A stretch of DNA of 28,657 bases from a virus (Duplodnaviria; Caudoviricetes): positions 1 through 28,657 of the IMG/VR virus record IMGVR_UViG_3300020045_004230; one strand, written 5' to 3'. This document shows positions 3,266 to 25,968 of the stretch, piece by piece (within the stretch, counting starts at the first letter, position 1; every line of letters starts with the position of its first letter). A model generated the notes under the pieces. It had not been told where the DNA came from and did no database searches. It was given only the letters and a program-made list of their open reading frames with translations. The position numbers were made by a program, and so were the translations under genes.

Positions 3266-3393
3266 TAAATTTAGTCCAAAAAAAACCACCATTAACCCCG
3301 GACAGGAGGTTAATGGTGGTTCAGTAGGTCATGATGAGATGACTTTAAAAAATGCCCTGTCCGGCGCTTTTTGAAGTTGTGGTGATTATATCA
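3262..3393 (-). promoter_or_regulatory. Helicase leader: extended -10 promoter, hairpin 1 (loop GGACAG), intrinsic terminator (loop CTGTCC, U8)
   Basis: TGaTATAAT at 3393-3385; imperfect hairpin 3342-3377; perfect 14-bp stem 3284-3297/3308-3321 with a T8 run at its 3' end; 9-nt complement ccggacagg/cctgtccgg. Confidence 0.75.
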
Positions 3394-5297: not shown

Positions 5298-5999
5298 TCA
5301 GAATGGTATGTCATCATCCCAGTTGTCATCTTCCGGTGCAGTGGTTTTAAACGCATTCTGAACCGGCGCATTGGGTTGGTTTGTGGCTTGCTTCATGATA
5401 TGCGCGTCGAGCGTAGCGGTCATATATTTAACAGTATCCAGTCCCGCAACATACTTTTCAATACTTTCCGCTTCCACGCCGTCAATAAACTCTTTCGCGC
5501 TTTGTCCTGTGTCGCTGGCGAAGCAGATAAAGTTCGGTGTAATGCGGGTTTCGCCGCTGTCTTTCCAGCTTCCATCAGGCTGTAAAGATTGTTTCTTTTC
5601 CTCTTTCATCTGAAAAACTGCGCCCAAATGTTTGCCTTCCAAATCTTCAAAAACTTTTTTCTTTGTCGGGACTTCTGCGCGTAAATCGTAGTCATAAACC
5701 CCGACCATCTTATTTTTTTGGTTCATGCTTTCCAGTTCAGCAAGCACCATCAATTCGCCGGTGATGCGTTTGACTCCGCTGTCCATCGGTTCGCCTTCGC
5801 GGTTCTGGTAGCAAATATAAATATCGCCACTTTTGCCGCAGTCGGTTACATATCCTAAATGCACCGATTTTGATAAATTATTTTCGCCTTTTCCTTCATG
5901 GTCGAATGCTTTTGTAATAGTGATCGGGTAAAATCCCGTTTTGGTAATTTTGCCGCCTGAAAATGCGCGTACTGCTGTTTTGTCTTGTTGGAAAGCCAT
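5298..5999 (-). CDS. Phage single-stranded DNA-binding protein (DUF669-like)
   Basis: Acidic C-terminal tail DDNWDDDIPF; GFYPITITKA N-terminal strand; follows the Sak4-like ATPase. Confidence 0.75.
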   Translation of the reverse strand: MAFQQDKTAVRAFSGGKITKTGFYPITITKAFDHEGKGENNLSKSVHLGYVTDCGKSGDIYICYQNREGEPMDSGVKRITGELMVLAELESMNQKNKMVGVYDYDLRAEVPTKKKVFEDLEGKHLGAVFQMKEEKKQSLQPDGSWKDSGETRITPNFICFASDTGQSAKEFIDGVEAESIEKYVAGLDTVKYMTATLDAHIMKQATNQPNAPVQNAFKTTAPEDDNWDDDIPF

Positions 6000-10292: not shown

Positions 10293-10477
10293 AACGCAAT
10301 TTATGCGTTGCGCTAAATTGCGCCGCAACGGAGCGCAATAGAACGCAATTTAGTGCTGTGTAAGTTATTGATTTATGGTTATCAAGCGCAATATAACGCA
10401 ATATAACGCAATGCAACATTTATTTGACACCGCAACAGAAAGGGTGTAGAGTGGCACTCGCCATCTACCCCCTGTTG
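10271..10477. repeat. Candidate replication origin: CGCAA iterons, IHF site and long hairpin
   Basis: 22-bp exact repeat 10282-10303/10331-10352; 10-bp periodic cgcaatataa; IHF consensus match at 10361-10373; hairpin 10433-10477. Confidence 0.7.
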
Positions 10478-10621
10478 AGTGGGCAAATGTCGGGTTGCAA
10501 ATGGGCGTAGGAACCCTTTTAAACAGTAATAAAACAAAGACTAATTTTTTATATCAGGTGGCTAATTATTGTGCCATTCCTACCCTGGTATTTGAGTTAG
10601 TCTTTTTTTTTGGAAATATAA

Positions 10622-10953: not shown

Positions 10954-11102
10954 TTGCAATTTTTGCGGCCTTTGCTATACTGAACTTGGTTTAGAAATGT
11001 CGTGCGGATTTATTTCTAAACCCTCCTTGGTTTTTAACCTCCACCACATCCTGGCCGCACCTGGGGTGTGACTGGGGGTTTTTTTTGGATTAAATTTTAT
11101 GA
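10954..11102 (+). promoter_or_regulatory. Leader: TTGCAA-N16-TATACT promoter, hairpin 1 (loop with GTGCGG), intrinsic terminator (loop CCGCAC, U8)
   Basis: Stem 10988-10998/11012-11022; terminator 11036-11086; loop segments 11002-11007 and 11055-11060 are complementary. Confidence 0.75.
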
Positions 11103-21662: not shown

Positions 21663-22319
21663 ATGAAAGCACGAGGATTATCAGTAAAAGATCGAATAGG
21701 CCAAAGGATTGGCAAGTTAGTTGTAATTGAAAGAGCAGCCAACAAGATAGAGATAGCAAAAAGCGGGAAAAAATCCGTTCGGGCTTGTTGGGTGTGTGCT
21801 TGTGATTGTGGGAATATAATCACGGCCAGCGGGCATAATTTGAGTAAGGCGCTTAGTAATCCAAACACAACCGCAGGAACTCGTTCTTGTGGTTGTTTGA
21901 TGGGGAAAGGTAATTTTAAGCATGGGCTATGTAACACTGATTCTTATATATCGTGGAAATCGGTATTAAGTCGATGCTTAAATCCAAACTACACATCTTA
22001 TAAAGATTATGGCGGTAGAGATATTACAGTTTGTGATAAATGGCTAACCTTTGAAGGATTCTATGAGGACATGGGAGACAGGCCGGAAGGCATGACCATA
22101 GACAGAACAGAAAACAACAAAGGTTACTATAAAGAAAACTGCAAATGGGCTACAAGAGAACATCAGGCTAACAATAGACGATCTAATGTAATACTTGAAT
22201 ACAACGGTAAGTCGATGACAATAGCTCAATGGGCGCGTGAAATCGGAATAACCAAAGGCGCTTTAAAATCACGTATAGAACGTGGCTGGGATATTGAAAG
22301 AGCATTAACAACACAGTAA
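21663..22319 (+). mobile_element. Free-standing HNH-like homing endonuclease inserted after the capsid gene
   Basis: WVCACDCG, SCGC, RC.NPN...Y..YGGR.I.VC..W, TIDR..N.KGY...NC.WAT...QANN; AT-rich, with its own TGtTATAGT -10 (21624-21632). Confidence 0.8.
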
Positions 22320-23573: not shown

Positions 23574-24284
23574 ATGAACCTGCTCACGCTTGTACAAAAG
23601 TTTTGCCAACGGACTAACATCCCCGTACCGGTTACGGTTTATGGCTCGACTGATAGTCAAATCTTGCAAGCAATGGCTATTCTTGAAGAAGAAGTCAACG
23701 ACTTGGCAAGCCGCCACACATGGCAAGGATTACAGCGTGAAGCGACACACAACACTATTGCCAACGAAGATCAAGGCGACATTAACACGCTTGACCCTGG
23801 CTTTCGGTTCATTCGTAACAACACTATTTGGGATACGACTGACAGACTCCCGGTTCTCGGCCCGCTGGATGGGCAGCAATGGCAAGCATTAAAAGCCATT
23901 CTGTCTAGTGGCCCGCGTTATCAATTTAGGTTTCGTGGCGATCATCTTTTAGTAAACCCCGTACCCGTTGCCGGGCATGTTTGGAAATTCGAGTATGAAA
24001 CTAAATATGCAATATTGGCGGTCGATGGGGTTACAGTAAAAGAATTTTTTACCGCTGACACCGACACCTTTTTAATACCAGATAACCTGCTCTTAATGGG
24101 GCTTAGATGGCGCTGGATGCGTGAGAAGGGCTTAGATTATGGCGAGCTATTCAACACCTACGAACGGCAGGTAAAAGACGCGATGGGGCGCGATGGCGGC
24201 AAGCCAATATTGTTTATGGACAATGGAGGCCGCGAATTAAAGCCGGGAATTTTTATACCTAATGGCACATGGACAGTACCATGA
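23574..24284 (+). CDS. Head-tail adaptor / tail tubular protein A-like
   Basis: MNLLTLVQ..C, LL..GLRWRW...KGLDY; position before the large tail gene. Confidence 0.7.
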   Translation: MNLLTLVQKFCQRTNIPVPVTVYGSTDSQILQAMAILEEEVNDLASRHTWQGLQREATHNTIANEDQGDINTLDPGFRFIRNNTIWDTTDRLPVLGPLDGQQWQALKAILSSGPRYQFRFRGDHLLVNPVPVAGHVWKFEYETKYAILAVDGVTVKEFFTADTDTFLIPDNLLLMGLRWRWMREKGLDYGELFNTYERQVKDAMGRDGGKPILFMDNGGRELKPGIFIPNGTWTVP

Positions 24285-24291
24285 AAAGGAT

Positions 24292-24382
24292 GGCTGTCTT
24301 TCCAGCCTGTCAAACGCTTGAATCAATAGGATTCGATTATTACATAAGACGCGCGCGCGTTTATGTAAAGCCGCACAGCGTT
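24292..24382 (-). ncRNA. C4-like antisense small RNA (candidate)
   Basis: Three-way junction (aacgct/agcgtt; ttacataa/ttatgtaa; gaatc/gattc), then TGACA-GGCTG-GAAAGA-CAGCC; upstream TATAAT at 24401-24396. Confidence 0.6.
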
Positions 24383-24405
24383 AGCACCGATCTTTATTAT
24401 ATAAC

Positions 24406-25968
24406 ATGAGAAAGCCACTACGCAACAGAGCCAACGCAAAGCAGCAGATTAGCAACTTTATAAGCCAGCAGTCCCCCGTCGGCGGGTGGAATGCTGTTGA
24501 CGCTTTGGCTAACATGAAGCCGTCCGAAGCGGTTGTTTTAGACAACTGGTTCCCAAAGCCGGGTTATTGCGAGATACGTGGCGGCAGCTCAAGCCATGCT
24601 ACAGGAATGACAGGGATAGGAAAAACTCTTGCTACTTACAACGCTTTGAACGGCACAAATAAAATGTTTTGCTCGACTGAGAGCGGCGTTTATAACGTAA
24701 CGTCGCCCGGTGCTGTCGGCGTGTCAGTAGCAGCGCGGACTAATGGCAAACATCAGCACTTACAATTTGGCGATGGTACCAACAATTATTTAATCATGGT
24801 AAACGGTGTCGATAAGCCGCTTTATTATGACGGTACAAACTGGATAGCGGTTGACGGTGCGAGTAGTCCAGCGCTGACGGGCATAACAACAACAAACCTG
24901 ATTGGCGTGGCCATGTTTAAGGGCCGGTTGATGTTTATCGCTAAGAACAGCCTTTCATTTTGGTATCTGGCGGCGGGCGCAGCGGGCGGGGCATTGACCG
25001 AGTTCAACCTATCCGGCGTGGCTCAGATGGGCGGTTATCTGGTAGCGGCTGAAACGTGGACGGTGGACTCTGGCAGTGGCCCCGATGATAGGATGGTTTT
25101 TATTACGTCAAATGGTGAGGTGATCGTCTATCAAGGCACAAATCCATCAGCGGCGGCAACCTGGGCGCTGGTAGGTACGTATCATCTGGGTGAGCCGTTG
25201 GGTCGCCAATGCACGATAAAAATAGGCCCGGACATTGTTATTCTGTCTAAAAATGGCGCTTATCCATTATCGACCATTCTTAACGCTACAGGATTGGATT
25301 ACTCGAAAGCGGTAACCTACAAAATTCAGAACGCTTTTAATGAAGCAGCGCTAAATTATGGCAATAATTTTGGATGGAAAGCCATATCATATCCAGGCCA
25401 AAGCGCGGTATTAATTAATATCCCGGTGGCTGAAGATGGAACGCATTACCAGTATGTTTTAAACACTATTACGAACGCATGGTGCAGGTTTATTGGTTGG
25501 GACGCTGAGGATTTTGGTTTGCTAAATGGCGAACTGTACTACTGTCAAGGTTCAAAGGTTATTAAGGCATGGACAGGTGCAAGTGACCAAGGCGGCAATG
25601 TCGAGGCTTATGCAAAAACGGCCTTTTCATATTTCAGCAATCGAGGCCAGTTAAAAAACTTTAAAATGTTCCGGCCTGTTTTAGCAACTAACGGTTCGTT
25701 ATCGTTTTTGATTGATATTGATGTTGATTTTGAAGATTCAGAAATTTATGGCGTTGCATCTTATTCGGTCGCCACGTCTGGAACATGGGACGTGTCGGAA
25801 TGGGATAGCGCTTTTTGGGCGGCTGGATTGCAGATAACAAAATCCTGGAACAGTCCGGCAGCTTATCCAGGATACGCGACTGCTGGGAAAATAAAAATAG
25901 CAACACAGTCGTTGGAAGTGCAGTGGATGAGTTGCGATTACATGTATGAGTCCGGCAATGGCTTATAA
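24406..25968 (+). CDS. Tail tubular protein B / P22 gp10-like packaged-DNA stabilisation protein
   Basis: 520 aa, beta-rich; PVGGWNA.D...M....A..LDNWFP; NGVD.P..YDG..W. Confidence 0.8.
   Translation: MRKPLRNRANAKQQISNFISQQSPVGGWNAVDALANMKPSEAVVLDNWFPKPGYCEIRGGSSSHATGMTGIGKTLATYNALNGTNKMFCSTESGVYNVTSPGAVGVSVAARTNGKHQHLQFGDGTNNYLIMVNGVDKPLYYDGTNWIAVDGASSPALTGITTTNLIGVAMFKGRLMFIAKNSLSFWYLAAGAAGGALTEFNLSGVAQMGGYLVAAETWTVDSGSGPDDRMVFITSNGEVIVYQGTNPSAAATWALVGTYHLGEPLGRQCTIKIGPDIVILSKNGAYPLSTILNATGLDYSKAVTYKIQNAFNEAALNYGNNFGWKAISYPGQSAVLINIPVAEDGTHYQYVLNTITNAWCRFIGWDAEDFGLLNGELYYCQGSKVIKAWTGASDQGGNVEAYAKTAFSYFSNRGQLKNFKMFRPVLATNGSLSFLIDIDVDFEDSEIYGVASYSVATSGTWDVSEWDSAFWAAGLQITKSWNSPAAYPGYATAGKIKIATQSLEVQWMSCDYMYESGNGL

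Follow-up and report, generated by a model that had tools for sequence, protein, structure and literature searches.

An accessory 121-bp insert between two phage tail genes carries an uncatalogued hairpin module and a putative minus-strand small RNA

The 121-bp gap between two tail genes of the analyzed phage genome (24285..24405) is, as judged by comparison with relatives, an accessory insert between genes that normally abut. On sequence grounds the element appears real and modest: it represents a new setting of an uncatalogued RNA hairpin module and not a C4 RNA, and its proposed regulatory link to attenuator leaders is a low-odds lead. The window, i.e., the whole stretch of DNA studied here, covers an entire virus record (28,657 bases, 74% complete). 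It comprises a left operon (Sak4, SSB, Gam-like protein, and helicase) and genes for cro and primase-helicase, terminase, portal, head, and tail, while tRNA genes were not found in the window. Upstream of the spacer lies the gene of an SU10-type adaptor or tail protein (23574..24284, plus strand; PF24175, phrog_6013), and downstream that of a 520-aa virion (tail) protein (24406..25968, plus strand), assigned to PHROG 5107 and labelled amidase.

The gap had been noticed in the first-pass annotation of the sequence, and comparison with relatives bears it out as an insertion. The junction gap is at most 20 nt, mostly an ATGA overlap, in 109 of the 130 distinct relatives carrying both genes, and it is 0 in the nearest relative, L001 (91% identical). 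Other inserts exceed 300 nt in 16 of the 130 relatives and measure 61–300 nt in five. The spacer contains no reading frame of 50 codons or more, and a BLAST search of it against cultured phages returned only pieces of 18–46 nt at chance level. Since the junction hosts frames with HNH-type motifs, recognized by eye rather than by a family scan, inserted before the tail gene (L260, L295, L200, and L208), as well as long extra virion-like genes, it can be considered an insertion hot spot. A different non-coding insert of 136 nt, with ATGCCGACA repeated near both ends, was observed at the same junction of another relative (L163:4065-4200), and Rfam gave no match to it.

The module occupies 24292..24312 on the minus strand and consists of TGACA (24312-24308) followed by the hairpin GGCTG-GAAAGA-CAGCC (24307-24292), which agrees with the general pattern of UGRCA and a five-pair stem with a GAAAGA loop. 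This pattern occurs in an estimated 2,300 or so viral stretches, and one of the loci (L042) carries 21 letters identical to those of the window. The pattern leaves two stem pairs unconstrained; in 121 distinct copies these were paired in 98% and 95%, respectively, and pair 4 was represented by six pair types. As far as covariation in sequences can tell, the module is an RNA element that covaries beyond chance. Extra copies in the flanks were on the same strand in 20 of 20 cases, and all tRNAs called beside modules were on the module strand, none on the other; therefore, the module strand in the window is the minus one. Downstream tRNAs (within 200 nt) were present in 24 of 152 module settings, and 18 of these 24 start within 9 nt; upstream tRNAs (14 of 152 settings) were at scattered distances. 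The usual place of the module is 3–9 nt ahead of a tRNA or inside a long leader, and no tRNA follows it at the window locus. Spurious frames overwhelmed an analysis of the reading frames near modules.

Cultured phages with the module infect Ralstonia, Bacteroides, Bacillus, and Erwinia. Module-like strings were also present in Halorubrum viruses, at four places in three records, and near the 3' end of an ssRNA phage (L431:1500-1520; L432:301-320); the ssRNA phage case may be due to chance. Together, these occurrences hint at a host-independent or very ancient partner. The module loop octamer GGAAAGAC is identical to positions 2056-2063 of E. coli 23S rRNA (L435:4697-4704), which belong to the macrolide-site region; 0.24 chance matches are expected in 6 kb, and the identity is only a curiosity unless the module mimics rRNA. 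In the window, a 16-nt stretch of the SSB gene (5556-5571), on the module strand, matches the hairpin of the module but lacks UGACA; this probably reflects codon chance. Rfam searches over the hairpin revealed no family in the window, in the spacer, or at 20 module loci (of 119), and the module is not in Rfam 15. No description of either the module or the kissing-loop leaders considered below was found in the largely open-access literature searched. The module was likewise not found in the covered text of PMC2864571 or in the covered material of PMC10690425, a source of 10,006 candidate RNA models; gapped alignments can hide a match in such comparisons.

All letters described in the first-pass annotation are present in their places. 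On the minus strand, the box TATAAT (24396..24401), which has a counterpart in the relative L003, represents a predicted -10 element, and the candidate -35 box TTGCGT (24420..24425) lies 18 nt away, inside the tail gene. This putative promoter exists as letters but does not stand out from chance: its -35 box has three of six consensus letters and was not called by the promoter scanner. The predicted RNA body (24313..24391, minus strand) is marginally stable and includes the 5' tail ATCGGT, the helix P1 formed by AACGCT (24382-24377) and AGCGTT (24318-24313), the seed segment GTGCGGCT (24376-24369), and the predicted arms P2 (24368-24340) and P3 (24334-24320). The structure drawn earlier has an energy of -29.0 kcal/mol, within 1.3 of the optimum of -30.3. 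The fold z-scores for 24285-24395 are -1.1 (minus strand) and -1.6 (plus strand), and the pairing probabilities are about 0.3 for P1, about 0.5 for P2 and P3, and about 1.0 for the last hairpin, while the seed segment is predicted to be unpaired 30–60% of the time. Of the compact fold proposed for the minus strand, the last hairpin is thus well founded, but the fold as a whole is not beyond chance (z of -1.1, P1 at about 0.3). A terminator-like call was obtained for the window cassette only and not for L003, and neither has a strong terminator.

L003, a 66% relative, carries a 115-nt insert at the same adaptor/tail-gene junction with the same minus-strand layout. In both cassettes TATAAT and ATCGGT are followed by a GCU/AGC-based helix closing at UGRCA and then by the module, which stands 5–7 nt from the insert end; the L003 insert ends 5 nt past the hairpin. 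Its -10 region is TG-G-TATAAT, a perfect extended -10 in the same place as the window TATAAT, and the distance from the -10 box to the module is 80–83 nt in both. TATAAT was found 68–98 nt upstream in only 1 of 111 unselected modules. Within the 5' parts, 17 letters agree between the two cassettes over a stretch of 27 chosen post hoc, and 16 were attained by 3 of 199 unrelated controls. A U-rich tail follows the module in only 30 of the 152 settings, and L003 is without one. In a tail-protein tree of 23 selected proteins, L001 is the sister of the window and L004 that of L003, in separate starred clades, and both sisters are insert-free; two gains or a horizontal swap would be the simplest reading. 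Judging by sequence comparison, the L003 cassette is a look-alike in another clade at the same junction and on the same strand. It was the sole case of the module in related loci (2.17 Mb), and none of 29 related records contained a module. Pattern scans of viral stretches yielded 9 with GTGCGG ahead of the module, none resembling the cassette; 90 with TATAAT ahead of it, where among the matches listed only L003 was alike by eye; and 5 with GCTG-NN-CGGC, L003 among them. The minus-strand small-RNA unit claimed earlier is therefore likely, from this independently placed cassette with the same layout and a perfect extended -10, but its identification as C4 does not hold.

The proposed targets of this RNA were two attenuator leaders in the same genome, and both are borne out as loop-loop terminators; a third one, overlooked earlier, is also present in the window. 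Leader a (3278..3390, minus strand), with a TATAAT box, precedes the helicase gene; its hairpin 1 contains GGACAG (3362-3357) and its terminator CTGTCC (3305-3300), within a 9-nt cis complement. Leader b (10976..11087, plus strand), with a TATACT box, precedes a DUF6378-like gene and has the hairpin 1 loop GTGCGG (11002-11007) and the terminator loop CCGCAC (11055-11060), complementary over 6 nt. Leader c (10424..10610, plus strand) precedes an HNH gene and combines TTGACA-17-TAGAGT with the hairpin GTAGGAA (10507-10513) and the terminator TTCCTAC (10577-10583), complementary over 7 nt. As stated earlier, GGCCGCAC at 11053-11060 and CCTGTC at 3306-3301 (minus strand) both lie in terminator loops. 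A stricter kissing-loop detector accepted 2 of 18 terminator calls versus 3 of 600 mismatched pairs, so that complementarity between the loops of these leaders exceeds chance, and the three leaders rank among the five strongest of the 18 calls. Leaders a and b end almost alike, with a U-run, GGA, Y, TAAATTT, W, and ATG (11080-11102 on the plus strand and 3284-3263 on the minus strand), suggesting a common origin; among viral contigs, the shared 3' anchor was found in 4 stretches, none with a kissing hairpin. Directly behind the helicase terminator lies a 17-codon frame (3265-3212, minus strand), which an ATGA overlap couples to the start of the helicase gene. Other clear kissing-loop leaders were observed in G010 (L443:10030-10185), G037 (L459 near 217, minus strand), and G059 (L531 near 5283), with the loop strings GGATAAG, GGTGAGAG, and GATGAA, respectively.

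The 8-bp match between GTGCGGCT and the 11053-11060 loop is present in letters, but it is little better than chance and only weakly suggestive. Of 1,500 shuffles, 2.9% reached its level on the leader b loop and 3.4% on any of the three loops; the corresponding counts among 162 unrelated module RNAs were 2 and 12. A null over any of six loops (36% of shuffles, 34/162) admits many G-U pairs and is too permissive to be given weight. The leader b duplex ranks 3rd of 1,811 sense-strand duplexes in the window, at -9.9 kcal/mol net with opening costs. Seven sites in the window fit the seed 8-mer, the spacer itself being one of them, and among 61 terminator loops taken from other phages, two pair with the RNA body over 8–9 bp. 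L003 differs from the window seed at two of the six loop-mimicking letters. The second match, between GACAGG and CCUGUC in the helicase leader, fails as a specific seed, as pairing of at least 6 bp was also seen in 98 of 162 unrelated module RNAs; it is uninformative because the module carries GACAGG itself (G follows TGRCA in 69%). Its GG lies in a stem, as had been pointed out, and is paired with a probability of about 1.0. For leader c, no matching seed was found in the spacer RNA. Leader b is the only candidate target with any support from the sequence.

Across genomes, the detector was applied to 629 terminator calls from 40 module-bearing genomes, of which those over 40 kb were covered only in part. 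It gave 16 hits, distributed over 14 of the genomes, and the genome's own upstream RNA was in the top 5% for 3 of the 16. None of these cases is convincing: in G075 the match is the TATAAT box itself, in G037 it is a partial 6-bp match, and in G052 the leader is doubtful. Counts of 4/48 and 8/48 were set aside because 4 of the 40 genomes had been picked for carrying GTGCGG. In G037 and G059, which have the two clearest kissing leaders among the 40 module-bearing genomes, the hairpin-1 loop string was absent from their own upstream RNA. Among relatives of the window, G010 has a kissing leader and no module, and G005 has a module, on its early strand, and no kissing leader. Single-protein scans with the helicase and portal revealed no relatives, and no close relative of the early region was reached.

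The C4 assignment was examined against the known RNAs. C4 of phages P1/P7 (RF01695) and the P4 CI RNA resemble the spacer RNA in being short structured phage RNAs with a closing helix and two inner arms, and in a proposed action via short seeds on leaders (PMC5320573 and PMC4825925). Rfam C4 model searches, the check suggested with the original claim, gave no match for the window (E<=1), for 24260-24460 (E<=10), or for the window and L003 per genome (E<=10); no score of at least 45 bits was obtained at the locus, and P1 C4, the positive control, scored 68.8 bits. The last element had been likened to the 3' hairpin of C4, but P1 C4 (L137:8344-8420) has no GAAAGA hairpin, and the likeness is mistaken because TTGACAG is the string of the C4 target sites a1/a2 and not of C4. 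C4 RNAs have a long P1 of about 17 pairs, two hairpins, and the a' string UGYCAA before the 3' strand; the spacer RNA has a P1 of six pairs with a probability of about 0.3 and no a' string before the closing strand, and its unpaired segment, unlike a', lies 5' of the arms. According to PMC5320573, C4 is excised from its target operon's leader, places two seeds on one message, and is processed by RNase P at the 5' end of P1. In P1 it is encoded between a1b1 and a2b2 in the target-operon leader, while the spacer unit does not come from such a leader: it lies on the antisense strand of the tail operon, at distances of 13 and 21 kb from its proposed targets, and offers at most one 8-bp match per leader instead of two seeds (a' and b') on one mRNA. 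The C4 identity was rejected, given no model match, no long P1, no leader location, and no double seed. A further likeness concerns c4-a1b1 (RF03163): the spacer 7-mer TTGACAG at 24313-24307 equals the P1 a1/a2 site, which there forms a hairpin loop, whereas in the spacer it is a single-stranded arm of the module. The c4-a1b1 model had no match at the locus and only a 6-bit match elsewhere (23864-23877, E of 2.5).

Phage morons are self-contained promoter-gene-terminator units located between genes adjacent in relatives. The spacer resembles them in being inserted between late genes that abut in relatives, in its own predicted promoter, and in its patchy spread; it differs in carrying no protein gene, in being antisense, and in ending with the UGACA-GAAAGA module instead of a strong terminator. 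A -10 box is present in both cassettes, the -35 box is weak, and the terminator-like call concerns the window only. In contrast to its usual setting, the module in the window closes a two-part unit and is followed by nothing further. The boxB hairpin of lambda nut sites, likewise located in phage untranslated RNA, also combines five stem pairs with a purine-rich loop; unlike it, the module has a six-base loop and no boxA, and it spans phages of several phyla and Halorubrum viruses.

The best explanation, to which we give a probability of about 45%, is that the spacer is an RNA-only moron producing a minus-strand RNA whose 3' end is set by the hairpin and whose 5' part pairs with messages other than the leaders. 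The insertion, its patchy spread, the module with its covariation, and the second cassette of the same layout are observed. The predicted minus-strand promoter, represented by the -10 box, would produce an RNA of roughly 100 bases, and its 3' end would likely be set by the UGACA-GAAAGA hairpin through weak termination and trimming back to the hairpin. The common placement 3–9 nt ahead of tRNAs would agree with this if tRNA 5' processing made the upstream RNA end in the module, but it agrees with a leader role as well. The 5' letters common to both cassettes may base pair with non-leader messages, perhaps a host or foreign-phage message, and the cassette could move between phages by recombination in flanking genes. 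Several facts argue against an RNA-only moron. The body fold is not significant and rests on two sequences, the module elsewhere heads a unit (18/24 downstream tRNAs within 9 nt), so a 5' leader fits at least equally, U-rich tails are infrequent (30/152, none in L003), the AT-rich run with TATAAT could serve tail-gene translation, and the duplex with leader b is third-best of 1,811 at -9.9 kcal/mol net. Alternatively, the spacer may be a passenger or a cis element on the late mRNA, such as a captured non-coding-leader fragment retained because it destroys the target of a homing nuclease or adjusts tail-gene translation. This is unlikely, although the junction takes many unrelated inserts, including the four HNH-motif frames seen by eye, the insertion breaks the ATGA coupling of the two tail genes, and the plus strand folds the same three-way junction more firmly than the minus; an intact module with a -10 box at 80–83 nt on the module's strand in both cassettes is hardly expected at random (1/111). 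Slightly less credible is the idea that the promoter and module head a longer antisense transcript running into the adaptor gene and damping early leakage of late genes, with the module as a 5' leader or protein-binding site for the downstream sequence. The frequent position of the module 3–9 nt ahead of tRNAs and the orientation of both cassettes, without a strong terminator, into the late operon agree with this idea, but it leaves unexplained why a stem-closed body of 70–80 nt is kept in both, and nothing structured follows the module.

Two readings retain a role for the kissing-loop leaders. In one, the GUGCGGCU segment outcompetes hairpin 1 for the 11053-11060 terminator loop and alters read-through into the DUF6378-like gene. 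Six of its letters equal the hairpin-1 loop and two more pairs reach into the weak top of the terminator stem, the plain duplex has -14.3 kcal/mol versus -9.3 for the cis pair, and the site is the best one on the sense strand for the seed segment (rank 3/1,811, attained by 2/162 controls). We nevertheless consider such competition improbable: the level is about 3% by shuffle before allowing for the free choice of segment, strand, and loop, seven window sites fit the 8-mer, the seed is only partly unpaired, and neither the upstream RNAs of G037 and G059, lacking the hairpin-1 loop string, nor the module-free kissing leader of G010 fit it. The original proposal went further, assuming a single C4-like RNA that imitates the hairpin-1 loop of each leader and controls the two attenuators together, providing immunity or timing. 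Both matches exist as letters, and the P4 CI RNA is a precedent for RNA-caused termination (PMC4825925), but this proposal is very hard to maintain. There is no C4 match, GACAGG is module consensus with its GG stem-paired at about 1.0, leader c is seedless, and module and kissing leaders do not coincide in G010 and G005. RNA-based immunity fares no better, as the cassette is rare and recent, almost all relatives being without it. In none of the five records tested, two of them complete and non-proviral and the window only 74% complete, did a tyrosine integrase or an HTH_3 repressor score above the cut-off; since the two complete relatives lack both, lysogeny needing protection may be absent.

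The module, present in viral stretches by the thousand, belongs to no catalogued family and has no assigned role. The window and L003 cassettes are the smallest natural module units seen in this analysis (promoter, body, module, and nothing after), and they bear on whether the hairpin ends an upstream RNA or heads a downstream one. The window genome also holds three kissing-loop terminators, which bears on trans-RNA switching of such leaders. A long shot in this respect is that the cassette is a mobile RNA-only unit with a variable seed on a universal hairpin scaffold, displaying a copy of the hairpin-1 loop and acting as the missing trans switch of a kissing-loop terminator; if true, it would be the first link between two uncatalogued phage RNA classes. 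Elsewhere in the window, an HNH gene (21663-22319) lies directly after the major head gene and has more than 80% in common with L001 and L004, and the head gene of L001 is split by a 472-nt alignment gap. Another relative (L317, 69%) sits in a Methylobacter MAG, a weak hint of a gammaproteobacterial host.
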